Below, piece by piece: positions 1-63,653 of a stretch of DNA of 64,000 bases (its first letter is position 1; each line of letters opens with the position of its first letter). Both the position numbers and the translations under genes were made by a program. The notes below the pieces were generated by a model. It did not search any database. It was given only the letters and a program-made list of their open reading frames with translations, and was not told the origin of the DNA. Source of the stretch: Heterodontus francisci (Eukaryota); the NCBI RefSeq assembly GCF_036365525.1, contig NC_090410.1, forward strand, positions 9,088,861 to 9,152,860. The letters are read 5' to 3'.

Positions 1-1943
1 CTGGTCAATGGTAGCCCCTAGGATGTTGATAGTGGGGGATTCAGTGATGGTAATGCCATTGAATATCATGGGGAGATGGTTAGATTCTCTCTTGTTGGAG
101 ATGGTCATTGCCTTGCAGTTGTGTGGCGCGTATGTTACTTGCCACTTATCAGCCCAAGCCTGGATATTGTCCAGGTCTTGCTGCATTTCTACACGGACTG
201 CTTCAGTATCTGAGGAGTCACGAATGGTGCTGAACATTGTGCAATCATCAGCGAACATCCCCACTTCTCACCTTATGATTGAAGGTAGGTCATTGATGAA
301 GCAGCTGAAGATGGTTGGGCCTCGGACACTACCCTGAGGAACTCCTGCAGTGATGTCCTGGAGCTCAGATGATTGACCTCCAACAACCACAACCATCTTC
401 CTTTGCGCCAGGTATGACTCCAGCCAGTGGAGGGTTTTCCCCCCGATTCCCATTGACCTCAGTTTTGCTAGGGCTCCTTGATGCCATACTCGATCAAATG
501 TTGCCTTGATGTCAAGGGCAGTCACTCACCTCACCTCTTGAGTTCAGCTCTTTTGTCCATGTTTGAACCAAGGCTGTAATGAGTTCAGGAGCTGAGTGGC
601 CCTGGCGGAACCCAAACTGAGCGTCAGTGAGGAGGTTATTGCTAAGCAAGTGCCGCTTGATGGCACTGTTGATGACACCTTCCATCACTTTACTGATGAT
701 TGAGAGTAGACTGATGGGGTGGTAATTGTGTATAGGACATACCTGGACAATTTTCCACATTGCAGGGTAGATGCCAGTGTTGTAGCTGTACTGGAACAGC
801 TTGGCTAGGGGCATGGCAGGTTCTGGAGCACAGGTCTTCAGTACTATTGCCGGAATATTGTCAGGGCCCATAGCTTTTGCAGTATCCAGTGCCTTCAGCC
901 GTTTCTTGATATCACGCGGAGTGAATCGAATTGGCTGAAGTCTGGCATCTGTGATGCTGGGAACTTCAGGAAGAGGCCGAGATGGATCATCAACTCGGCA
1001 CTTCTGGCTGAAGATTGTTGCAAATGCTTCAGCCTGATCTTTCGCACTGATGTGCTGGGCTCGCCAATCATTGAGGATGGGGATATTTGTGGAGCCACCT
1101 CCTCCAGTTAGTTGTTTAATTGTCCACCACCATTCACAGCTGGATGTGGCAGGACTGCAGAGCTTAAATCTGATCTGTTGGTTATGGGATCGCTTAGCTC
1201 TGTCTATCGCATGCTGCTTACGCAGTTTGGCACGCAGATAGTCCTGTGTTGTAGCTTCACCAGGTTGACACCTCATTTTAAGGTATGCCTGGTGCTGCTC
1301 CTGGAATGCCCTCCTGCACTCTTCATTGAACCAGGGTTGATCTCCTGGCTTGAAGGTAATGGTAGAGTGGGGGACATGCCGGGTCATGAGGTTACAGATT
1401 GTGGTTGAGTGCAATTCTGCTGCTGCTGATGGTTCACAGCGCCTCATGGATGCCCAGTTTTTTGCATTGCTAGATCTGTTCAAAACCTATCCCGTTTAGC
1501 ACGGTGGTAGTGCCACACAGCACAATGGACGGTATTCTCAATGTGAAGGCGGGACTTCGTCTCCACAAGGACTGTGCGGTGGTCACTCCTACCAATACAG
1601 TCATGGACAGAAGCATCTGCGGCAGGCAGATTGGTGAGGACGAGGTCAAGTATGTTTTTCCCTCGTATTGGTTCCCTCGCCACCTGCCGCAGACTCAGTC
1701 TGGCAGCTATGTCCTTAAGGACTCGGCCAGCTCGGTCAGTAGTGGTGCTACCGAGCCACTCTTGGTGAAGGACATTGAAGTCCCCCACCCAGAGTACATT
1801 TTGTGCCCTTGCCACCCTCATTGCTTCCTCCAAGTGGTGTTCAACATGGAGGAGTACTGAGTCATCAGCTGAGGGAGGGCGGTAGGTGATAATCAGTAGG
1901 AGGTTACCTTGCCCATGTTTGACCTGATGCCATGAGACTTCAT
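1..1943 (-). mobile_element. CR1/L2-group LINE, 5'-truncated degenerate copy of the tRNA-headed family at 56445-59671 (APE C-terminus + RT); continues left of the window
   Basis: ORFs 1480-2004, 512-1483 and 268-525 give VGDFN, LDLVLTN, SDHRTV (APE) and KAMGPDNIP, QFGFRQGHS, LDIKATFD, GVPQGSV (RT). Nearly collinear with 57075-59030. Frameshifted. Confidence 0.93.
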
Positions 1944-2130
1944 TTAAACAGTATACAGTTTTTCTATTAATATCGCACCGATCAAAAATCCAAAACCACT
2001 TCACATACTATCAATTACTATAAACTGCATTCATTATTCTGGAGGGCATTTCTGTGCACAGCAAGATCCCACAAATAGCAATGAGCTGAATAACGTAGTC
2101 ACTACTTTTGTTGGGGGGGGTCTGTTAAGG

Positions 2131-2448
2131 CAGTGATTAACAAACCTTTTTGGTTGAAAGACCCCTTTTCAAATAGATTAGTATTCACTGACACCCCATT
2201 TAAATTATAATGCCGCACAATAATGAGAATACTGCACACAAACATGATTTTAATAAAGCTTTTGAGAAAGCAAGTATTTACCTTGTGCTGTTCTCTGCAC
2301 TCCTCCTAGCACACTGCCCTAAGTGAGAGTGCCAGCCCACTCTATGCTGCACATATGGCAGCCAGACTCCACACCCACCTTCGCGGACCTCCCTGCAAAG
2401 TCTCTCCGGAGTCCCAAGGGTCCATGGACCCCAGTTTGAGGGCCAATG
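2131..2448. mobile_element. Non-autonomous hAT (Charlie/MER5-like) MITE
   Basis: Imperfect terminal inverted repeats CAGTGATTAACAAAC ... GTTTGAGGGCCAATG. Both ends are shared with 40467-40973. Degenerate 8-bp flanks tgttaagg / ggtcaaga. Confidence 0.6.
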
Positions 2449-3382
2449 GGTCAAGAGAGGTGTCGCTTAGGACACAAGAGGAACACTGTCCCTGCTTTTC
2501 AAATAATGCAGAGCGATGTTTAATATCCACATTAACAGCACTTGGTTTGATACCTCATCTGAAGAGGAAAGGAAGGGGATTAAAAGAGGGGGGGGGGGGG
2601 GGGAGAGGGGGAAATGAGAAAGGATGTGGTTGTCAACTTATGCTGTCGGTATCCTTGAAGGTTCTTTCATTACATGAGGCTCCAACCACGGTCCCCCAAA
2701 TCACTGGTCAAACCCTCCCCAATTAAAAGCCAACACACTGTTACCCAATTGACAGACAAGAATTATCTAAACACCTTTCCCTCCCCATCTTCCATATATG
2801 TTAACTAATAAAAGTGTTCAAAGATTTTTTTTTTAAATACCCCAATAATTTCTCTCCTGAGTCGCTTGCAGCAGTATCCCAGGGATTAAACCTTGATTGC
2901 TGGAGACTGCAGGACGATCCTAGAGGATTGGCAACCTCAGAGTGAGTAGGAGAAAAGGGGATCCATCCTGTGCTTCCGGATACATTAGGACTGGGTGGAT
3001 GGGCAATGGTGGAACTCCACAAATTAATAAAGGCCGGTGATAACGGGTAAATGTGCCCTTCTCCACCAGGCAAGGAAAGGAGGCAGCGCCAGTGGCAGTA
3101 AGTCGGTGCAAGAGCCGCCCCCTTACGAATTGCACCCTCTTTTGCATGGGCCAAAAAAATGTAGAACGCGCAATCGGCCCATCCACACGGTGCAATCACC
3201 GAGCGACCCCGGCCTCGCCAATGACCACGCTATTTTCTTTGCTGCAACGGTTATATGTGTAGACTTTTTTGTTTGCACAGCCTCCTCCATCCAACCTTTC
3301 GATACGTTATTACAATGCTTTTACTTTTTTTGTGGCAAAAAAACCCCGAAAATGATGATTCAATTCAACTATCCCATCGAAA

Positions 3383-6875: not shown

Positions 6876-7000
6876 ACTTTAATTTGCAATTTCCATTTTT
6901 ACTGTTGGCTTCTTGCTTTCCTGATGTATTTTGAAGTGTGGATCCAATGATCCCTCCCCTCAACTATATTCTATTGGCTGTATTACTACCAGAATACCCA

Positions 7001-7634
7001 TAAACTTAACTGGAGTAGTCACATGAATACTGGGATTACAAGAGCAGGTCAGAGGCTGGGAATTCTGCGGCGAGTAACTCACCTCCCCAAAGCCTGTCCA
7101 CCATCTACAAGGCACAAGTCAGGAGTGTGATGGAATACTCTCCACTTGCCTGGATGGGTGCAGTTCCAACAACACTCAGGAAGCTCAACACCATCCAGAA
7201 CAAAGCAGCCCACTTGGTTGGCACCCCATCCACCACTTTAAACATTCACTCCCTCCACCACCGACACACAGTGGCAGCAGTGTGTACCATCTACAAGATG
7301 CACTGCAGCAACTCACCAAGGCTCCTTCAACAGCACCTTCCAAACCCGCGACCTCCACCACCTAGAGGGACAAGGGCAGCAGATGCATGGGAACACCACC
7401 ACTTGCAAGTTACCCTCCAAGCCACACACCATCCTGACTTGGAACTATATCACCGTTCCTTCACTGTCGCTGGGTCAAAATCCTGGAACTCCCTAACAGC
7501 ACTGTGAGTGTACCTACAAACTACAGGAGTTCAAGAAGGTGGCTCACCACGACCTTCTCGAGGACAATTAGCGATGGGCAATAAATACCAGCCTTGCCAG
7601 CGACGCCCACATCCTGTGAATGAGTAAAAAAAAA
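7001..7634 (+). mobile_element. 3' fragment of the tRNA-headed LINE family
   Basis: ORF 7127-7507 (MEYSPLAWMGA...HSLHHRHTVAAVCTIYKMH) matches ORF 56503-57006. Ends CCCACATCCTGTGAATGAGT followed by an A-run. Confidence 0.88.
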
Positions 7635-13619: not shown

Positions 13620-16566
13620 GTCGAAGGGGGTCGAGGTCAAGGAGGATCTCCAAGAGGTGAAGAGCCAGCAGGCCTCACTCTTTGCCACGGAGGCCTCCAA
13701 GATCATCATCTGGTCCAGAGTCCCGCTCTGTGGAGCAGGATGAGACATGCCCGTGCTTCTTCTTCCAAAAGGTACACACAGAGAGCTCTGTGATCAGCAG
13801 CCTGAAGGAAGAGGACGGCTCAGTAACGTCATCGCAGGACATACTAAGCATCAGCAAATCCTTTTATGCCGGGCTGTATGACATGAAGCCCACGAACAGC
13901 AGAGCCTCCCAGTCCTTCCTGTCCTCTATCACAGAGGTCTTAGATGACAGTACACTTGAGAATCTGGACAAACAGCTAACACTGAACAAGCTGACAAAGG
14001 CCTTCAGGTCCTTCGAGACCAGTAAAACTCCCAGAAGCGACGGCTTACCGGTTGAGTTGTATTCGACTCTGTGGGACTGGATCGGCCCAGACCTGCAGTA
14101 AGTGTACGAGGGTATGCTTCTAGACGGCAGCTTGTCAGAATCCATGAGGAAAGGCATCATCACCCTCATCTACAAGCGGAAGGGGAAGAGGGAGGAAATC
14201 AGAAATTGACGGCCCATCTCACTGCTCAATCTAGACTACAAGATTCTGTCCAAAGTCATCGCCAGTCGGGTCAAGTCTGATCTGCAGTTGGTGATTCACC
14301 CTGACCAGACTTGCACTGTACCCGGCAGGAAGATCTCCGATAGTCTTGCGTTACTCAGGGATACGATAGCCTATGTACGGGACAGGAGGGTGGACACCTG
14401 CCTCATCAGCTTGGACCAGGAGAAGGCTTTTGACAGGATATCGCACACCTACATGATGAACGTGCTTTCCAAAATGGGGTTTGGGGAGGGAATCAAAAAT
14501 TGGATCAAACTGCTCTACACAAAGATCAATCAGCAGTCTCAATCAATGGGTGGGAATCAGAAAGCTTCCCGATCAAATCTGGAGTCAGACAGGGCTGTCC
14601 TCTCTCCCCTGTCTTATTTGTTTCCTGTATCGAACCTTTTGCCGAGTCCATTAGGAAGGATACAGGCATAAGAGGGGCGACAATCCCAGGCAGCGGAGGC
14701 ACTCAGGTCAAAGCCTCCCAGTACATGGACGACGTCGCTGTCTTCTGCTCAGATCCGCTGTCCGTTTGCAGACTGATGAGCATCTTCGACCAGCTCGAAC
14801 TGGCCTCGGGAGCCAAACTAAATCACGGCAAGAGTGAGGCCATGTTCTTTAGGAACTGGGCTGACCAATTCTTTGTCCCCTTCACTGTCAGGATGACCTG
14901 AAGGTGCTGGGGATATGGTTCAGAGGGGCCGGGGTGTGCACTAAAAACTGGAAGGAGCGAGTAGCCTTGGTGAAACGGAAACTGGTCATGTGGGAGAAGC
15001 GCTCTCAGTGTTGCTGTATGAGGCACAGGTCTGGCCCATACCCTGCTCCTGCGCTGTGGCAGTACCCAAGCCATCTTCCGCTTTATCTGGAGATCGAAAG
15101 TGGACTGTGTCCTCAGGGAGACGATGTTCAAACATCTGGATATAGGGGCCTTTTTGTGCGGCTGCATCAAACTGTGCGTAGAGCCCCAGTATGCAAACAC
15201 TATGTGTCACTACGTGTTGAGGTTCTATAGGTCCCTGGTGTTTAGTTTAGAGTTTAGAGATACAGCACTGAAACAGGCCCTTCGGTCCACCATGGTCGGT
15301 CCACTGTGCCGACCATCAACCACCCATTTATACTTATCCTACACTAATCCCATATTCCTACCACATCCCCCCCTGTCCCTATATTTCCCAACCACCTACC
15401 TATACTAGGGGCAATTTATAATGGCCAATTTACCTACCAACCTGCAAGTCTTTTGGCTTGTGGGAGGAAACCGGAGCACCCGGAGGAAACCCACACAGAC
15501 ACAGGGAGAACTTGCAAACTCCACACAGGCAGTGCCCAGAATTGAACCCGGGTCGCTGGAGCTGTGAGGCTGCGGTGCTAACCACTGCGCCCCTGTGCCG
15601 CCCCTGTGTTGCGAAGGATGGGTCTGGTCACATTGCCACGTAACGCTCCATCCAGTTGGACTGTGCTGTACTACCTATCCTTCGTGGAATAGTTTGTGCA
15701 GAAAAACACCTTTGACCACCAATCCATCAGGCAGTGGTCTGCACAGAATGTCCTCAAGGCCTAAGGGAAAAGGAGATAGTGGACCCTGTCAGATAGTTCC
15801 CCGAGCAGACTGTCAAAGTCATTTGGCGGAATGCCTCATCACCAGAACTTTCAAACAAGCACCAAGACGTAGCTTGGCTGGTGGTGAGAAGGGCCCTCCC
15901 CGTCAGATCCTTCCTGCATGCCTGGAGTCTCACCCCCTCCGCATGCTGCCCTCGAAGTGGCTGTGGTGGGGAAAGACAGTTGCCCACCTCCTTCTGGAAT
16001 GTGCCTTTGCAAAGCAGGTCTGGAAAGAGATGCAGCGGTTTTTGTCGAGGTTCATCCCAAGCAGATCTGTAACACAGGAGTCTGTGCTCTACGGGCTCTT
16101 CCCAGGGACGCACACCGAGACAAACATCAACTGCTGCTGGAGGAACATCAGCTCCGAGAAAGCCGCTCTTTGGTCTGCCTGAAACCTGCTGGTCTTCCAG
16201 TACAAAGAGCGGTCCACGACCGAGTGTTGCAGACTGGCACATTGCAATGTCCAGGACTACATGTTGAAGGATGCACTAAAGCCTGGGGCAGCCGCCACAG
16301 AGGCTCAATGGGGAAAGGCTGCTCCCGCAATAGTATACTGAGGAGCAGGAAACCATGTAAAACTCCTCAGGCTGTATGCACCAGAGAATGTTTTTGCAAT
16401 GTAATGCAAATGTACATTGTATATAAAATGGAACAGCAAGAGTTGTGAGGCACCTCACGTTCTGTATCGAAAGAAACTGATCTTTATTGCACTTTCTGAA
16501 ATGTCCAATTTGAATTGTTTTGTAATTAATTTTTTATGAATAAAGTATATTTTTGGGGGGAAAAAT
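13620..16566 (+). mobile_element. Tx1-type (L1 clade) retrotransposon, 5'-truncated degenerate ORF2 plus 3' UTR, interrupted by an HE1 SINE
   Basis: KTPRSDGLPVELY, IHPDQTCTVPGR, LDQEKAFDRISH, GVRQGCPLSP and QYMDD motifs; C-terminal CP..GC...TVAHLLLECAFAKQVW zinc motif; ends AATAAAGTATATTTTTGGGGGGAAAAA. Confidence 0.9.
15241..15604 (-). mobile_element. HE1-type V-SINE nested in the Tx1 element
   Basis: Same head, V-domain and tail as 12871-13221. Tx1 sequence resumes on both sides. Confidence 0.9.
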
Positions 16567-25361: not shown

Positions 25362-25725
25362 AGGAGACGGTGACATAGTGGTAATGTCTCTGGACTAGTA
25401 ATAGAGGCCCAGCCTAACGTCCTGGGGAGACAGGTTCAAATCCCAACACGGCTGGTGGAATTAAAATTTAATAAGTAAAAATCTGGAATTGGAAGCTAGT
25501 TGCAGTTATGATGCCATGATTGTCGTAAAAACCCATCTGGTTCAGTAATGTCCTTTAGGGATGGAAATCTGCCATACTTACATGGTCTGGCCTACATGTG
25601 ACTCCAGGCACACATCAATGTGGCTGACTCTTAACTGCCCCCTGAAATGGCCCAGCAAGCCACTTCAGGGCAATTAGGGATGGGCAACAAATATCTACCA
25701 GTGATGCCCACATCCCATGAAAAAA
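25362..25725 (+). mobile_element. tRNA-headed SINE: head and leader of the 56.4-59.7 kb LINE joined to its 3' tail
   Basis: A box TGACATAGTGG, B box GGTTCAAATCC, body matching 59390-59671 (-), then AGGGCAATTAGGGATGGGCAA...CCCACATCCCATGAA matching 56455-56515 (-). Confidence 0.85.
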
Positions 25726-40007: not shown

Positions 40008-40401
40008 TTTCATTTTTTCATGGGGCATGGGCATCACTGGCAAAGCCAGCATTTGTTGCCCATCCCTAATTGTCCTTGAATTGAGAGGCTTGCTCGGCCA
40101 TTTCAGAGGGTAGTTAAGAGTCAACCACATTGCTGTGGGTCTGGAGTCATATGTAGGCCAGACCGGGTAAGAACAGCAGATTTCCTTCCCTAAAGTGAAC
40201 CAGATGGGTCCTTACAACAACGATAGCTTCATGTCGCCATTACTGAGACGAGCTTCCAATTTCAGATTTTTAAAAAATTCATTAACTGAATTTAAATTCC
40301 ACCAGCTGCCATGGTGGGATTTGATCCTGTTTCTCCAGGGCATTAGCCTGGGCCTCTGGATTACTAATCCAGTGACATTACCACTACACCACCGTCTCCC
40401 C
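40008..40401 (-). mobile_element. tRNA-headed SINE (derivative of the 56.4-59.7 kb LINE family)
   Basis: The - strand reads GGGGAGACGGTGGTGTAGTGGTAATGTCACTGGATTAGTAATCCAG...GATCAAATCCCACC, then leader, then the LINE 3' tail CAAGGACAATTAGGGATGGGCAA. Confidence 0.85.
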
Positions 40402-46834: not shown

Positions 46835-47052
46835 GTATCCATCCTGACTTGGAACTATATCACCATTCCTTCACTGTCGCTGGGTCAAAATCCTGGAACT
46901 CCCTCCCTAACACTGTGGGTGTACCTACACCGCAAGGACTGCAGTGGTTCAAGAAGGCAGCTCACCACCACCTTCTCAAGAACAATTAGGGATGTGCAAT
47001 AAATGCTGACCTTGCCAGTGACGCCCACATCCTGAGAATGAATTTTTTTAAA
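46835..47052 (+). mobile_element. 3' fragment of the tRNA-headed LINE family
   Basis: CATCCTGACTTGGAACTATATC...CAATTAGGGATG...GCCCACATCCTGAGAATGAAT. Confidence 0.8.
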
Positions 47053-47617: not shown

Positions 47618-47850
47618 CTCATGAAACTACTGGATTGTTATAAAAACCCATCTGGTTCACTAATGTCCTTCAGGGAAGGAAATCTGCCATCCTTACCTGG
47701 TCTGGCCTACATGTGTCTCCAGATCCACGGCAATGTAGTTGACCCTTAACTGCCCTCTGAAATGGCCTAGCAAGCCACTCAGTTGTATCAGACTGCCACA
47801 GAATAGCACTGTGAGTGTACCTACCTACACCACATGGACTGCAGCAGTCT
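47618..47850 (+). mobile_element. Headless fragment of a tRNA-headed SINE (leader joined to a longer LINE 3' piece)
   Basis: AAAAACCCATCTGGTTCACTAATGTCC...GAAATGGCCTAGCAAGCCACTCAGTTGTATC, then AGCACTGTGAGTGTACCTAC..CACATGGACTGCAG. Confidence 0.78.
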
Positions 47851-50765: not shown

Positions 50766-51254
50766 GTACGTGGCTCCCGACAAAAAGATTGTAACATTAA
50801 TCTGCAACAATGTGACTTCAGCAATCACACAGCCCGCAACTGCTACAGGTTCTCCCCTATTAAATATTTGAATGAATTTGATTTTAATCTTTAATCTAAA
50901 TAGATTTTTTTTTTACAAATTTAGTTTATTTTTGTAATTTAGCCTGATATGATTTTGCTGCCATCTGTTGTAAGTCCCTCTGTTAATGAAACGCCCTGGG
51001 TTGACGCCAGGTTCTATCTACGTGTCGCATCCTGTTTTGTGGGTTTATGTGCAGAATTATTTGCCCTGTTGTGTTTGTAACCGAGTGTTGCGGGGTCTTT
51101 TTGTTTCTAATTGCTACAATTGGGCAACGAAGTGGCAGATGCAGTTTATTGCCAGTATGTGTGAGGTTTTGCTTTCTTTGGAGAAAAAAATATAGTAATT
51201 TACAATTGTGAATCTTTATAAAACCTTGGTATGACCTCAAATGAACGGGGTACC

Positions 51255-54200
51255 ACAAGGATCGGTACTTGGGGCCCCAACTGTTCACTAGACATGTCAA
51301 TGATTTGGATGTGGGGACCAAATGTAATATTTCCAAGTTTGCGGATGACACAAAACTAGGTGGGAATGTGTGTTGTGAGGAAGATGCAAAGTGGCTTCAA
51401 GGGGATTTGGACAGTCTTAGTGAGTGGGCAAGAACATGGCAGGTGGAATATAATGTGGAAAAATGTGAGCTTATGCACTTTGGCAGCAGGAACTGATGTG
51501 CAGGGTATTTCTTAGATGGTAAGAGATTAGAAAGTGTAGCTGTACAAAGTGACTTGGGTGTCCTCGTCAATAAGTCACTGAAAGCTAACACACAGATGCA
51601 GCAAGCAATTAGGAAGGCTAATGGTATGTTAGCCTTTATTACAAGAGGATTTGAGTGCAGGAGTAGTGAAGTCTTGCTTCAATTGTATAGAACCTTGGTT
51701 AGAACACACCTGGAGTACTGTGTGCAGTTTTGGTCCCCTTATCTTAGGAAGGATATTATTGCCATAGAGGGAGTGCAATGAAGATTCACCAGACTTGTAC
51801 CTGGGAAGGTGGGACTGTCCTCTGAAGAGAAATTGGGGAAAATGGGCCTGTATTGTCTAGAGTTTTGAAGAATGAGAGGTGATCTTATTGAATCCTACAA
51901 AATACTGAAGGGATAGATGTGGTAGATACAGGTTAGATGATACCCCCTGGTTGGGAAGTCTAGAAGCAGGGGACACAATTTCAAATTAAGGAGGAAGCCA
52001 CTTAGGACTGAGAAGAGGAGAAGTTTCTTTAGAATCATAGAACGTTTAAGGCCACCTTCCAACATCTGGTCCGTAACCCTGCAGCTTACGGCACGTGAGG
52101 TGCATATCCAGACTCCTTTTGAATGAGTTGAGGGTCTCTGCCTCAATACCCTTTCAGGCAGAGAGTTCCAGACCCCCACCACTCTCTGGGTGAAGAAGGT
52201 TTTCTTCATCTCCCCTCTAATTTTTCTCCCAATCACTTTAAATCTATGCCCCCTTGTCACTGACCTCTCTGCTAAGCTGGATAGACCCTTCACCTCCACT
52301 CTATCCGGGCCCCTCAAAATTTTGTACATTTCAATGAGATCTCCCCTCAGCCTTCTCTGTTCCAAGGAGAACAACCCCAGCCTATCCAATCTTTCCTCAT
52401 TGCTGCATTTTTCCAGTCCTGGCATCATCTGCGTCAATCTCCTCTGTACCCTCTCTAGTGCAATTACAACATTTCTGAAATGAGGTGACCAGAACTGCAC
52501 ACAGTACTCAAGTTGTGGCCTAACCAATGAGTTATACAGTTCCAGCAGAACCTACCTGCTCTTGTATTCTGTACCACGGCTAATAAGGGAATGGGTTCCA
52601 TATGCCTTCTTAACCACCTTATCGATCTGTCCTGCTACCTTCAGGGATCTATGGACATTCAAGGTCCCTTACTTCCTCTATACTTCTCCGTATTTTCCCC
52701 ATTAATCATGTATTCCTTTGCCTTGTTTGACCTCCCCGAATGCATCACCTCACACTTCTCCAGGTTGAATTCCATTTGCCACTTTTCTGTCCATCTGACC
52801 AGACCATCAATATCTTCCTGTAGCCTGCAGCTATCCTCCTCGCTATCTACCACACGGCCAATCTTTGTGTCATCTGCAAACTTCTTGATCATACCTGCTA
52901 CATTAAGGTCCAAATTGTTAATATACACCACAAAAAGCAGGGGACCCAGTACTGAGCCCTACGGAATGCCACTGGAAACAGCCGTCCAGTCGCTAAAACA
53001 ACCGTCAACAATTACCCTTTGTTTCCTGCCACTGAGCCCATTTTGTATCCACTGCTGCATTTCCCTGGATTCCATGGGATTTTATTTTTTTTAACCAGTC
53101 TGCCATGTGAGACCTTGTCAAAAGCCTTGCTAAAATCCATGTAGACCACATCACCTGCACTACCTTCATCTTTCTTCCTTGTTACTTCTTCAAAAAATTC
53201 AATCAAAATTGTCAAACAAGATCTTCCCTTAACAAATCCATGCTGACTATCCTTAATTGATCTGTGCTTTTCTAAGTGATAGTTTATCCTGTCTCTCAGA
53301 ATAGGTTCCAATAATTTGCCCCCTACTGAGGTTAGCCTGTAACTATTCGGTCTATCCTCACTCCATTTTTAAACAGAGGTACAACATTAGCAATTCTCCA
53401 ATCCTCCGACACCACACCTGTCTCCAGTGAGGACTGGAAAATGATGGTCAGACCCTCTGCTATTTCCTCCCTTGCTTCTTTTGACAGCCTAGGATACATT
53501 TCACCTGGCCCTGGTGATTTATCAACTCTCAAGGATGCTAATCCCATTAATATTTCCTCTCTCCCTATGTTTATCACATCCAATGCTTCACACTCTTCCT
53601 CCTTAACTACAATATCTGCATCATCCCCCTCTTTTGTGAAGACAGACGCAAAGTATTCATTAAGAACCATACCAACATCTTCTGCTCCTACACATAGGTT
53701 ACCTTTTTGGTCTTTTATGGGTCCTACTCTTTCCTTAGTTATCCTCTTACTCTTAATGTATTGATAAAACATCTTTGGGTTCACCTTGATTTTTCTTGCC
53801 AATATTCTTTCATGCCCTCTCTTTGCGTCCTAATTTCCTTTTTGATTTTATCCCTCCACTTTCTATAATCCTCTCGGCTTTCTGTAGTATTGAATTCTTG
53901 GTGTCGGACATAAGCTTTCCTTTTCTGCCTTATCTTACCCTGTAAGCTCCTTGACATTCATGGGGCTTTAGATTTGGCCGTCTCACCCTTTTTCTTTGTG
54001 GGAACATGTTTACAGTGAACCCCTTGAATCTCTCCTTTGAATGTCTCCCACTGCTCTGATACTGATTTACCTTCAAGTAGCTGTTTCCAGTCCACTTTCG
54101 CTAAATCGCTCCTCAGTTTACTAAAATTGGCCTTGCCCCAATTGAGAACTCTAACTCCTGTTTAAACTCTGTGGTTTTCCATAATTATGTTTAAACTGAC

Positions 54201-55175
54201 TGAATTTAGTTATAGACTATGGATTATGATCACTACCACCAAAATGCTCTCCCACTGCCACTTCTTCCACCTGCCCATCTTCATTTCCTAAAACTACGTC
54301 TAAAACTGTGCCCTCTCTTGTGGGACTTGCTACGTACTGGGCAAACAAGTTCTTCTGAATGCACCTCAAGAATTCTGCTCCCTCAATTCCTTTCAAACTA
54401 TCCCAGTTAATATTGGGGTAATTAAAATCCCCTACTATTACTGCCTTACTGTTCTTGCACTTCTCAGAGATTTGCCAACATATCTGCTCTTCTATCTCCC
54501 TCTGACTAGTTGAGAGTCTATGGTGCACTCCCAGCAGTGTGATTGCCCCTTTTTTGATCCTTAGCTCAATCCATATGGCCTCATTTGATGAGCCTTCCAA
54601 CATATCATCTCTCCTCACAGCTGTAATAATTTCTTTGACCAAAACTGCCACTCCTCCTCCTTTCTTTTCTCCCTCCCTATCGCATCTGAAAACCCAGTAA
54701 CCAGGAATGTTGAGCTGCCATTCCTGTCCCTCCTTAAGCCATGTTTCTGTAATAGCTATGATATCATACTGCCACGTGTCTATCTGCGCCTGCAGCTCAT
54801 CTGCTTTATTTGCTATACTCCTTGCATTGAAATAGATACCATTGAGCACTGCCAAAGTCTCTCTAACCCTCATTTTCTAACCCTCATTTCCTCTGTCTTC
54901 CAGACTCATCCATTAATTTTCCGCCTTCCATTTTAATTTCTGATTTACTCAGAGGGTTGTGAATCTTTGGAATTCTCTACTCCAGAGGGCTGTGGAAGCT
55001 CAGTCATTGAGTATGTTTAAAGTAGAGATTGACAGATTTCTAAATGCCAATAATATAAAGGGATCTGGGGATAGTGTGGGAAGTAGGCATTGAAGTGGAT
55101 GATCAGCCATGATTGTATTGAATGGCGGAGCAGGCTCGATGGGCTGAATGGCCTTCTCCTCCTATGTTCCTATGT
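51255..55175 (+). mobile_element. CR1 LINE 3' half (51255-52030 and 54945-55175), split by a nested antisense CR1
   Basis: SKFADDTKLGG and LYRTLVRTHLEYCVQFWSP. Sequence breaks at AGTTTCTTT and resumes at ACTCAGAGGGTTGTGAATC. Confidence 0.85.
52031..54900 (-). mobile_element. HER1-like CR1 LINE, nearly complete degenerate ORF2
   Basis: APE IYFNARSI..IAITETWL..VGDFN..SDH; RT KSPGPG, SQHGFVKGRSC, MDFSKAFDKV, KFADDTK; C-terminus VRPQLEYCVQFWSP..WNSLP; stops and frameshifts. Confidence 0.93.
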
Positions 55176-56444: not shown

Positions 56445-59400
56445 TTTTATTCATTCATGGGATGTGGGTGTCGCTGGCTATGCCAGCATTTATTGCCCAT
56501 CCCTAATTGCCCTTGAGAAGGTGGTGGTGAGCTGCCTTCTTGAACCGCTGCAGTCCGTGTGGGGTAGGTATTGTGCTGGTAGCAAGGGGGTCCCAGGATT
56601 TTGACCCAGTGACAGTGAAGGAACGGCGATATAGTTCCAAGTCAGGATGGTGTGTGACTTGGACGGGAACTTGCAGGTGGTGGTGTTCCCATGTATTTGC
56701 TGCCCTTGTCCTTTTAGTTGGTAGAGGTCGCGGGTTTGGAAGGTGCTGTTGAAGGAGCCTTGGTGCATTGCTGCAGTGCATCTTGTAGATGGTACACACT
56801 GCTACCACTGTGTGCCGGTGGTGGAGGGAGTGAATGTTTGTAGATGGGGTGCCAATCAAGCAGGCGGCTTTGTCCTGATTGGTGTCGAGCTTCTTGAGTG
56901 TTGGAGCTGCAACATCCAGGCAATTGGAGAGTATTCCATCACACTCCTGACTTGTGCCTTGTAGATGGTGGACAGGCTTTGGGGAGTCAGGAGGTGAGTT
57001 AGTCACCTCAGGATTCCTAGCCTCTGACCTGCTCTTGTAGCCACAGTATTTATATGGCTACTCCAGTTCAGTTTCTGGTCGATCGTAGCCCCTAGGATGT
57101 TGATAGTGGGGGATTCAGCGATGATAATGCTGTTGAATGTCAAGGGGAGATGGTTAGATTCTCTCTTGTTGGAGATGGTTTCTGCCTGGCACTTGTGTGG
57201 TGCGAATGTTACTTGCCACTTGTCAGCCCAAGCCCGGATATTGTCCAAGTCTTGCTGCATTTCTACACGGACTGCTTCAGTATCTGAGGAGTCACGAATG
57301 GTGCTGAACATTGTGCAATCATCAGCGAACATCCCCACCTCTGACCTAATGATTGAAGGAAGGTCATTGATGAAGCAGCTGAAGATGGTTGGGCCTAGGA
57401 CACTACCCTGAGGAACTCCTGCAGTGATGTCCTGGAGCTCAGATGATTGACCTCCAACAACCACAACCATCTTCCTTTGCGCCAGGTATGACTCCAGCCA
57501 GCGGAGGGTTTTCCCCCTGATTCCCATTGACCTCAGTTTTGCTAGGGCACCTTGATGCCAGACTCCGTCAAATGCTGCCTTGACGTCAAGGGCAGTCATT
57601 CTCACCTCACCTCTGGAGTTCAGCTCTTTTGTCCATGTTTGAATGAAGGCTGTAATGAGGTCAGGAGCTGAGTGGCCCTGGCGGAACCCAAACTGCGCGT
57701 CACTGAGGAGGTTATTGCTAAGCAAGTGCCGCTTGATGGTACTGTTGATGACACCTTCCATCCCTTTACTGATGATAGAGAGTAGGCTAATGGGGCGGTA
57801 ATTGGCTGGGTTGGACTTGTCCTGCTTTTTGTGTACAGGACATACCTGGGCAATTTTCCACATTGCAGGGTAGATGCCAGTGTTGTAGCTGTACTGGAAC
57901 AGCTTGGCTAGGGGCGCGGCAAGTTCTGGAGCAGAGGTCTTCATTACTATTGCCGGGATATTGTCAGGGGCCCACTGCCTTTGCAGTATCCAGTGCCTTC
58001 AGTCGTTTCTTGATATCACGCGGAGTGAATCGAATTGGCTGAAGTCTGGCATCTGTAATGCTGGGGACTTCAGGAGGAGGCCGAGATGGATCAACAACTC
58101 GGCACTTCTGGCTGAAGATTGTTGCAAATGCTTCTGCCTTATCTTTCGCACTGATGTGCTGGGCTCCCCCATCATTGAGGATGGGGATATTTGTGGAGCC
58201 ACCTCCTTCAGTTAGTTGTTTAATTGTCCACCACCATTCACGGCTGGATGTGGCAGGATTGCAGAGCTTAGATCTGATCCGTTGGTTATGGGATCGCTTA
58301 GCTCTGTCTATCGCATGCTGCTTATGCAGTTTGGCACGCAGATAGTCCTGTGTTGTAGCTTCACCAGGTTGACACCTCATTTTGAGGTATGCCTGGTGCT
58401 GTTCCTGGCATGCCCTCCTGCACTCTTCATTGAACTAGGGTTGGTCTCCTGGCTTGATGGTAGAGTGGGGGATATGCCGGGCCATGAGGTTACAGATTGT
58501 GGTTGAGTACAATTCTGCTGCTGCTGATGGCCCACAGCTCCTCATGGATGCCCAGTTTTGCATTGCTAGAACTGTTTGAAATCTATCCCATTTAGCACTG
58601 TGGTAGTGCCACACAACACGATGGACGGTATCCTCAATGTGAAGGCGGGACTTCATCTCCACAAGGACTGTGCGGTGGTCACTCCTACCAATACTGTCAT
58701 CGACAGATGCCTCTGCGGCAGGCAGATTGGTGAGGACGAGGTCAAGTATGTTTTCCCCTCTTGTTGGTTCCCTCACCACCTGCCGCATACCCAGTCTAGC
58801 AGATATGTCCTTTAGGGCTCGATCAGTAGTGGTGTTACCGAGCCACACTTGGTGATGGACATTGAAGTCCCCCACCCAAAGTACATTCTGTGCCCTCGCG
58901 ACCCTCCGTGCTTCCTCCAAGTGCTGTTCAACATGGAGGAGTACTGAGTCATCAGCTGAGGGAGGGCGGTAGGTGGTAATCAGCGGGAGGTTTCCTTATC
59001 CATGTTTGATCTGATGCCATGAGACTTCATGGGGTCCCGAGTCAATGTTGAGGACTCCCAGGGCAACTCCCTTCCTGCTGTATACCACTGTGCCACCACC
59101 TCTGGTGGGTCTGTCCTGCTGGTGGGACAGGACATACCTGGTGATGGCAGTGTCTGGGACATTGTCAGTCAGGTATGATTCTGTGAGTATGACTATGTCG
59201 GGCTGTTGCTTGACTAGTCTGTGGGACAGCTCTCCCAACTTTGGTACAAGCCCCCTGATGTTAGTAAGGAGGACTTTGCAGGGTTGACGGGGCTGGGTTT
59301 GCCATTGTAGTTTCCGGTGCCTAGGTCGATGCCGGGTGACCCGTCCGGTTTCATTCCTTTTTATTGACTTTGTAGCGGTTAGGTACAACTGAGTGGCTTG

Positions 59401-59671
59401 CTCGGCCATTTCAGAGGGCATGTAAGAGTTAACCACATTGCTGTGGGTCTGGAGTCACATGTAGGCCAGACCAGGTAAGGACAGGAGATTTCCTTCCCTA
59501 AAGGACATTAGTGAATTTTTACAACCATCAACAATGATTTCATGGCCATCTAGTTTTTTAATTCCAGATTTATTAATTGAATTCAAATTTCATCTTCTGC
59601 TGTGGTGGGATTTGAACCCATGTCCCTGGGTCTCTGATCCAGTGACAATACCACTATGCCACCGCCTCCCC
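56445..59671 (-). mobile_element. Full-length 3.2-kb single-ORF CR1/L2-group LINE with a tRNA-derived 5' head (this copy is frameshifted)
   Basis: A box TGGCATAGTGG (59651-59661) and B box GGTTCAAATCC (59608-59618). ORF pieces 58996-59436, 58435-58920, 57964-58380, 57003-57944 and 56503-57006 assemble into APE (LLTNIRGL, LTESYL, GGG, VGDFN, SDH) plus RT (NYRPISLL, QFGFR, GVPQGSVLGP, FADD). Tail (GAAT)2 AAAA. Confidence 0.92.
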
Positions 59672-62171: not shown

Positions 62172-62590
62172 TGGGGCATTTATTGCCCATCCCTAATTGA
62201 CCTTGGAAAAAGTGGTGGTGAGCTGCCTTCTTTGACCGCTACAGTCCGTGTGATGTAGCTATACCCATGAGTGCTTCTCGTTCTTTGGCAGTTTGATGCA
62301 ACTGAGTGGCTTGCTAGGCCATTTCAGAGGGCAGTTAAGAGTCGACCACATTGCTGTGGGTCTGGAGTCACATGTAGGTCAAACTGGATAAGGACTGCAG
62401 ATATCCTTCCCTGAAGGACGTTAGTGAATCCGATAGGTAGTTTCATGATCATTATTAATGAGATTAGCATTTTATTGCAAATTTATTAATTGAATTTAGA
62501 TTCCCTCAGCTGCCAGAGTGGGATTTGAACTCCTGTTTCTGGAGCATAAGGCTGGGCCTCTGGATTACTAGTCCAGTAACATCACCACTA
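62172..62590 (-). mobile_element. tRNA-headed SINE (derivative with a longer LINE 3' piece)
   Basis: The - strand has TAGTGGTGATGTTACTGGACTAGTAATCCAG..GTTCAAATCCC, then leader, then CACACGGACTGTAGCGG..CTCACCACCAC..CAATTAGGGATGGGCAATAAATG. Confidence 0.82.
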
Positions 62591-63287: not shown

Positions 63288-63653
63288 GGGCGGCACAGTG
63301 GCGCAGTGGTTAGCACCGCAGCCTCACAGCTCCAGGGACCCGGGTTCGATTCCGGGTACTGCCTGTGTGGAGTTTGCAAGTTCTCCCTGTGTCTGCGTGG
63401 GTTTTCTCCGGGTGCTCCGGTTTCCTCCCACAAGCCAAAAGACTTGCAGGTTGATAGGTTAATTGGCCATTATAAATTGTCACTAGTATAGGTAGGTGGT
63501 AGGGAAATATAGGGACAGGTGGGGATGTTTGGTAGGAATATGGGATTAGTGTAGGATTAGTATAAATGGGTGGTTGATGTTCGGCACAGACTCGGTGGGC
63601 CGAAGGGCCTGTTTCAGTGCTGTATCTCTAATCTAATCTAGAATCTAATCTAA
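63288..63653 (+). mobile_element. HE1-type V-SINE
   Basis: Full head, V-domain, HER1 tail with (CTAAT)n. Confidence 0.9.

Follow-up and report, generated by a model that had tools for sequence, protein, structure and literature searches.

The divide between long and short interspersed nuclear elements (LINEs and SINEs) is drawn by polymerase and coding capacity: in the pertinent sections of PMC10886601 and PMC5786205, LINEs are coding elements transcribed by RNA polymerase II (Pol II) and SINEs are non-coding products of RNA polymerase III (Pol III), with SINE lengths of 100–700 bp given in the former. The statement on transcription in Kojima (2024) likewise assigns non-long-terminal-repeat retrotransposons to Pol II and SINEs to Pol III. 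For elasmobranchs, a passage of the dogfish genome paper names two known SINEs, HE1 and SacSINE1, and the origin of SINE bodies is called an open question in passages of PMC5786205 and PMC5499810. Here we describe an element from the horn shark Heterodontus francisci, located at 56445..59671 on the minus strand of a 64,000-nucleotide (nt) stretch of contig NC_090410.1 (hereafter, the window), in which a head of tRNA origin and a leader precede a single open reading frame (ORF) for an apurinic endonuclease-like (APE) domain and a reverse transcriptase (RT). We favour, at a probability of roughly 0.7, the reading that this is a LINE of the CR1/L2 group in the broad sense, autonomous and with a single ORF, present in sharks and rays, whose 5′ end would be an internal type-2 Pol III promoter.

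A family with a tRNA head and a single APE-RT frame

The original prediction described this locus as a protein-coding retrotransposon with a SINE-type promoter and posed the question whether full-length copies start at the same tRNA head and whether the consensus ORF is intact. A 29-nt sequence spanning the leader/ORF junction had 3,375 exact matches in the 6.0-Gb genome, a degenerate 34-nt version 7,768 and a 31-mer from the APE region 8,236; judged by the divergence among copies, the true copy number is probably several times above these exact-match counts. With head plus ORF as query we obtained 7,658 candidates, scored 40 and fetched 20 copies, 16 of which reached from head to tail. They shared a sharp 5′ end within a few nt, lay in unrelated flanks and differed by 2.9–5.3% from the family consensus, which is 3,289 nt long and contains a single APE-RT frame of 975 open codons.

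For an unbiased view of the 5′ end, the first 30 of the 8,236 APE 31-mer matches were picked by the APE motif alone. Again 16 reached the tRNA head (for one of them, with a deletion in between, this was a visual judgement); the remaining 14 were truncated at scattered points, six in the leader (positions 123–206) and eight in the first codons, and no alternative 5′ sequence was shared in register among the 30. An apparent alternative 5′ end, suggested by 21 near-identical matches starting at one leader position, was rejected as a single insertion amplified with its flanks and was counted once. The amplified truncated copy occupies 21 loci (L052-L080; C35, C1806, C1960, C334, C1395 and others) at 98–99% identity, within a large repeated unit.

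The 307-nt consensus leader holds no ORF1 (no ORF of at least 60 amino acids before the main frame), and no ORF1-bearing form occurred among the 30 APE-picked copies. The two near-intact copies scanned had no match to a PHD domain, Pfam returning APE and RT only; these are also the domains of the window copy, which leaves no room for an ORF1, as originally noted. Full-length copies without the head or with an ORF1, named beforehand as evidence against the proposal, were looked for and not encountered. Head, leader and junction are shared by older subfamilies, whose identity to the young consensus is 79–86%, and the leader/ORF junction is the same in subfamilies 79–97% identical to the consensus. 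All 30 bins of the element were covered in sequencing runs of four organisms, and a contig from another organism's run spans the junction (58919-59453). The architecture of tRNA head, leader and APE-RT frame is thereby established at the level of the family; this part of the original description stands, while Pol III drive is supported by the sequence evidence given below.

The copies are dispersed, anchored at the 3′ end, variably truncated at the 5′ end and A-rich in the tail, which is the pattern of an autonomous LINE. Target duplications are short or absent (at least 6 nt in 4 of 17 copies vs 22 of 272 mismatched pairs). The head is also present on natural copies whose frames are open for 926, 930 and 937 codons; a complete 975-codon frame was found in none of 121 copies scored from 948,496 candidates, 937 codons being the longest. 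We compared the oldest group of 12 copies (alignments of < 88% identity only) with the young consensus, both from head-bearing subfamilies, and counted 32 non-synonymous and 81 synonymous fixed differences over the ORF, a ratio of non-synonymous to synonymous change per site (pN/pS) of 0.12. The catalytic motifs of both APE and RT are intact. By these signatures the ORF is functional in the head-bearing lineages.

Promoter boxes, T-runs and the start of translation

Both promoter boxes reported for the minus strand are present: the A box TGGCATAGTGG at 59651..59661, which begins 10 nt after the 5′ end, where +1 is placed, and the B box GGTTCAAATCC at 59608..59618. The head diverges by 14.8% between subfamilies, more than every other part of the element (the conserved part of the leader, 5.1%). 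Within it the A box is identical in the oldest and youngest subfamily consensuses, and the B box has changed only from G to A at two purines, equivalent to tRNA positions 52 and 57 and both tolerated. The A-box/B-box pair pattern occurs six times in the window and not once in 100 shuffles.

Pol III terminates at sense-strand runs of at least four T. Such runs are absent from the 3,289-nt consensus, vs 14 runs of A, 13 of C and eight of G; the older consensus has none either, and none lies in the main aligned part of any of the 12 natural copies with a long ORF. Two control LINEs from the same genome have eight in 2,036 nt (CR1-like) and four in 3,158 nt (RTE-like, equal to the element in T content), and at least one TTTT was present in 79 of 80 distant relatives, including all 50 of at least 2 kb. 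Within the ORF, not one TTT was found across codon junctions (0 vs 11.6 predicted by the codon frequencies of the element itself; Poisson about 1e-5), with observed/expected values for the other junction triplets of 31/41.6 (A), 40/40.9 (C) and 33/29.9 (G). The same-genome controls gave 15/19.2 and 21/22.2 for TTT, and the ratio was 0.45–1.49 in all 55 relatives, of the 80, with frames of at least 600 codons. Windows of five nt with four T numbered one in the ORF vs 10.8 under its own codon usage (P 0.004). The signal sits in 2.9 kb absent from the SINE, so this purge cannot be put down to exchange with SINEs. Collectively, boxes and T-run deficit make Pol III transcription of the full-length RNA very probable.

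A partial T-run deficit was seen in one metagenome relative only (L276; junction TTT 9 vs 19.8, one TTTT in 2.5 kb), in which no upstream B box was found. At the other end of the element, T4–T6 stands exactly at the 3′ end before the A-run in 14 of 39 tails. T-run and A-run lengths in the tail are negatively correlated (r −0.37, n 36), their total being about 10 nt. An AATAAA 45 nt before the end was not relied on as a polyadenylation signal, as many older SINE copies read AACAAA.

An ATG at 59409 had been proposed to open the ORF. It lies in frame with APE in the window copy, its context is strong and every subfamily retains it; as a simple ORF start it is not supported, since most copies stop two codons later. 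The window copy reads ATG-GCC-GAG (59401..59409, minus strand), whereas ATG-GCC-TAG is found in most family copies (TAG in 68 and GAG in 16 of the 100 first-listed junction matches). After the TAG, the next in-frame Met is residue 285, beyond APE. Because most copies stop so soon after the ATG, translation would require a non-standard route. A small hairpin is predicted around the ATG, its 7-nt loop containing the stop, a fold that is not significant (z about −1.2).

The change from stop to GAG, a T-to-G substitution at consensus nt 305 (window 59403), occurs in about 16% of copies without linked sites; the 7-nt loop resembles an anticodon loop. A GAG subfamily with a restored AUG start was considered and dropped, as GAG/AAG copies (11 of 84 rows) were scattered over the tree with no linked site, at low resolution among the young copies. 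The out-of-frame ATG at 59354 was also rejected as a start, being missing in the oldest subfamily; without a frameshift, a start there would leave out the conserved TNI strand. A whale-shark gene model (P0221) starts at its equivalent but seems to have been predicted on a decayed copy; a private frameshift of this kind was also seen in two genome copies. We infer that ribosomes enter internally at the conserved leader and then either read through UAG-CAA or re-initiate; a start at a non-AUG codon, or a frameshift out of the frame of the ATG at 59354, is also conceivable.

Two-ended derivatives and alternative explanations

A partner SINE of the family consists of LINE nt 1–321/323 joined to nt 3219/3222–end, and the corresponding leader-end-to-tail joining pattern had 3,516 exact matches in the genome. 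The window contains copies at 40017..40401 (minus strand; LINE nt 1–321 plus nt 3222–end) and, with the same structure, at 25365..25721 (plus strand). Other two-ended forms join nt 336 to 3192, 337 to 3152, 340 to 3155 and 359 to 3141 and keep coding bits of both ends; the window holds the 340-to-3155 form at 62176..62590 (minus strand), with bits of both ORF ends, and a 5′-truncated 337-to-3152 form at 47620..47848 (plus strand). A tree built from the heads and leaders of 28 short and 67 long copies had SINE and LINE interleaved by age, with diagnostic bases in common. The simplest reading would be deletion, more than once, from LINEs of the same age, or exchange with them; presumably a tRNA or SINE supplied the head in a single capture.

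On our preferred reading, the A and B boxes would be bound by TFIIIC, and Pol III would start at +1, copy all 3.3 kb, whose sense strand would have lost its terminators, and stop at a T-run at or past the 3′ end. The uncapped RNA would be translated without a normal start, most likely through internal entry at the conserved leader and then read-through of AUG-GCC-UAG or re-initiation beyond it. The APE-RT protein would bind the 3′ hairpin and make new copies by target-primed reverse transcription, and internal deletion of the full-length RNA would yield a ready-made tRNA SINE, as may have happened more than once. That the full-length Pol III RNA doubles as messenger, by some non-standard start, seems to us probable. 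We lean, by a smaller measure of confidence, towards the fuller proposition that this 3.3-kb uncapped messenger is the sole RNA of a self-sufficient retrotransposon, a natural protein-coding gene of Pol III in a vertebrate; that a leader element lets it be translated with no frame opened by AUG; and that the element, which would occur across sharks and rays, has repeatedly been the one-step parent of tRNA SINEs that inherit its head, body and tail.

Several observations weigh against this account. The absence of TTTT taken alone was not significant relative to dinucleotide-preserving shuffles (P 0.15 and 0.21) or own-codon shuffles (P 0.08–0.10). Only T1–T3 is present in 25 of 39 tails, so that most copies would lack a terminator of their own, and the interleaving of SINE and LINE heads means that the boxes could be refreshed by exchange with SINE RNAs. 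Since the old consensus is 94% identical to the young one, the two do not count as independent observations. As for the messenger, nine AUGs occur in the first 300 nt and most copies have no in-frame AUG reaching APE. A 41-codon open segment ahead of APE (59278..59400, minus strand), itself without in-frame AUG, shows 0 synonymous and 5 non-synonymous differences between subfamilies, that is, no protein-level constraint; it stays open with its length kept, and whatever constrains it looks to act on nucleotides rather than residues. Predicted folds of the leader and N-terminal segment were not significant (z −0.2 to −2.2), and neither the window copy nor three near-intact copies matched an Rfam family of internal ribosome entry sites (IRESs) or ribozymes, their tmRNA matches corresponding to the tRNA-like head. 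The RNA status of the sequencing-run contigs is guessed, and start, strand and cap are unreadable from them. Finally, Pol III products of mobile elements are held to be short in the section of PMC10886601 on their transcription.

One alternative is a cycle with two polymerases, in which a Pol III RNA is copied into insertions and the protein comes from a separate capped Pol II transcript (host read-through, spliced or leader-started). Such a division would account for the T-run purge and the boxes, and also for the missing usable AUG and the upstream AUGs. However, a Pol II start would not provide an AUG either; 5′ ends form no peak within the leader, where the six truncations among the 30 APE-picked copies are scattered; and, given the cis preference of LINEs, purifying selection on the ORF in head-bearing lineages would be easier to keep if the copied RNA were the messenger. 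We regard this cycle as unlikely. Alternatively, the element might be an ordinary Pol II LINE with a SINE-captured 5′ untranslated region (UTR), its boxes being passengers refreshed by recombination with SINE RNAs and its T-runs avoided for some other reason. This agrees with the Pol II transcription ascribed to LINEs in the cited parts of PMC10886601 and PMC5786205, with the interleaved heads and with generally low TT dinucleotides (0.67–0.72), and an internal Pol II promoter would likewise give a sharp +1. The purge, however, shows specificity for T, the sense strand and this family, and spans 2.9 kb that no SINE shares, and +1 sits 10 nt before the A box; we hold a captured 5′ UTR to be unlikely as well.

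The in-frame stop behind the only nearby AUG in most copies, and the lack of a complete frame among the 121 scored, would also suit a long non-autonomous SINE with a dead ORF, mobilized by another LINE. The pN/pS value, the intact catalytic motifs and the lack of an ORF1-bearing form among the 30 unbiased copies largely refute it and leave it very improbable. SINE and LINE pieces are abundant in the window, so that a one-off chimera or chance adjacency might have been suspected at this locus; thousands of exact junction matches, the same junction in diverged subfamilies and its recovery in another organism's contig refute this.

The window copy, its relatives and comparison with known systems

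The window copy is decayed but full-length, 4.9% from the consensus, and dead, with three premature stops, two frameshifts and several deletions. Its tRNA-derived head (59598..59671, as all its parts on the minus strand) lacks 21 nt of the anticodon/variable-arm region; it had a weak tRNA match in Rfam (18.5 bits, E 2.7, under the 29-bit cut-off; another copy, 19.7 bits), and ARAGORN at default settings called no tRNA there. The consensus head gave a 91-nt long-arm tRNA fold at a relaxed ARAGORN score only. The leader (59387..59597), an AT-rich part followed by the conserved part, equals the body of the partner SINE. The APE domain (58640..59277, Pfam) has the motifs TNI, LTES, TYRPP, GDFN, LDL and SDH; the RT core (57084..57827; PF00078, E 1.7e-36) has FADD; the C-terminal part (56503..57083) has no Pfam match and ends HHHLLKGN-TAG. 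The 3′ tail common to the partner SINE (56445..56514) comprises the last four codons and a 54-nt 3′ UTR with a predicted hairpin and terminates GAATGAAT, followed in the family by 1–6 T and then the A-run.

That head and ORF moved as one unit, first argued from flanks resembling two halves of a CR1 3′ remnant, is borne out far better by the other genomic copies. The left and right flanks align to neighbouring places of a CR1 3′ end (target ..552 and 544..), which lends the idea weak support, although for most targets the scores did not exceed the maximum reached by shuffles, and BLAST of both flanks gave 0 pairs, no subject being matched by left and right flank together. A split CR1 3′ end is plausible, not proven.

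Further fragments of the same family lie at 1-1943 (−), 6998-7623 (+) and 46839-47043 (+), and distantly related LINE fragments, 22–34% identical to the ORF in amino acids, at 52743-54816 (−), 51248-51799 (+) and 13973-14509 (+). ARAGORN's sole tRNA call in the window is the head of another SINE (63292-63450, +), which we take to be HE1/V-SINE. SacSINE1/Deu-body, a label first considered for the partner SINE, proved wrong, as the Deu domain differs and is not in the element: two Deu motifs from the SINE2-2_CM/EbuSINE2 alignment (PMC5786205 supplement) matched six and seven places in the window, none within 56445-59671. These places mark a separate Deu-domain SINE family of at least 6–7 copies (3899, 11496, 12166, 20071, 30729, 37910 and nearby). 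Judged by eye, 24 nt within the leader look similar to the OegopSINE CORE/Ceph segment (PMC5786205 supplement).

The named RT relatives come from Rhincodon typus, with 59–74% identity, and from Mobula birostris, with 82% across one third of the query, and a HMMER search of 1.84 billion representatives gave no intact close relative outside sharks. The RT is 36.6% identical to the same-genome CR1-like control and 44–50% to invertebrate and protist LINEs; in a quick RT tree (support 83, no named clade references) the family does not group with that control. No tRNA head was found on the 80 distant relatives, metagenome loci with no B-box pattern upstream of the ORF, many of whose contigs begin near the ORF. 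The APE start most like that of the family (VLLTNxxGL) was seen in two LINE proteins of 965–968 amino acids (P0008, P0011), one of them on a 3,280-nt contig; both proteins begin with a Met 7–14 residues ahead of that start. An RTE-like family of the same genome (L039:475-2769, L161-L180) is young and low in copy number (65 candidates, copies up to 100% identical, a 1,033-codon frame) and may still be active.

Two-ORF elements of the CR1/L2 group carry an ORF1 of esterase, PHD or RRM type upstream of ORF2. The element resembles APE LINEs of that group, in the broad sense, in having APE and RT in one frame, FADD, no RNase H match, a (GAAT)n-like end and frequent 5′ truncation, and differs from them in lacking an ORF1 and an AUG start and in having a tRNA head and a T-run purge. 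With tRNA-derived SINEs (SINE2) it shares the head with A and B boxes, the body, the LINE-type tail and the absence of internal TTTT; unlike them, it is 3.3 kb long and encodes its own enzyme, under purifying selection.

R2 uses a restriction-like endonuclease. As described in the relevant part of PMC3414825, it too has a single ORF on an RNA other than an ordinary capped mRNA and gives rise to SIDE-like derivatives by internal deletion. An in-frame stop just upstream of the R2 ORF is proposed there to matter for IRES-type initiation, so that R2 may be a functional analogue of the element's stop-before-ORF start. Unlike the element, with its internal tRNA-type promoter, R2 is site-specific and, in the same account, cut from an rRNA co-transcript by a ribozyme like that of hepatitis delta virus; no such ribozyme was matched in Rfam at the 5′ end of the window copy or of three near-intact copies. 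The element's deleted derivatives, unlike those of R2, would be true Pol III SINEs.

No description of a tRNA-headed autonomous CR1/L2-group LINE was found in the literature, nor any paper printing six sequence motifs of the element; Repbase, Dfam and subscription journals lay outside the search, and the family may thus be catalogued. If the reading is true, a high-copy vertebrate family both coding and transcribed by Pol III breaks the LINE/SINE rule, Pol III can make a natural 3-kb messenger where terminators have been purged, and an initiation element that needs neither cap nor AUG comes to light; the family would also offer a direct path by which SINEs are born and a source for one SINE body. 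Partial precedents exist. One sentence in PMC5786205 says that RTE-1_DAn and relatives contain tRNA-like sequence; compared by that description, they differ in belonging to the RTE clade. SacSINE1 and other Deu-SINEs with L2-2_CM likewise pair a tRNA-headed shark SINE with a CR1/L2-group partner, in the passage of PMC5499810 on them; the element has no Deu motif and hence belongs to a separate family, a distinction drawn on that motif and not on the SacSINE1 sequence itself. The bipartite LINE-derived SINEs of Kojima (2018; PMC5786205) have, as here, a body and tail that correspond to LINE 5′ and 3′ ends. In that account RTE and Vingi are the sole contributors and the small-RNA head is acquired once the deletion has taken place, whereas here a CR1/L2-group LINE is already headed, and the family crosses the LINE/SINE definition.

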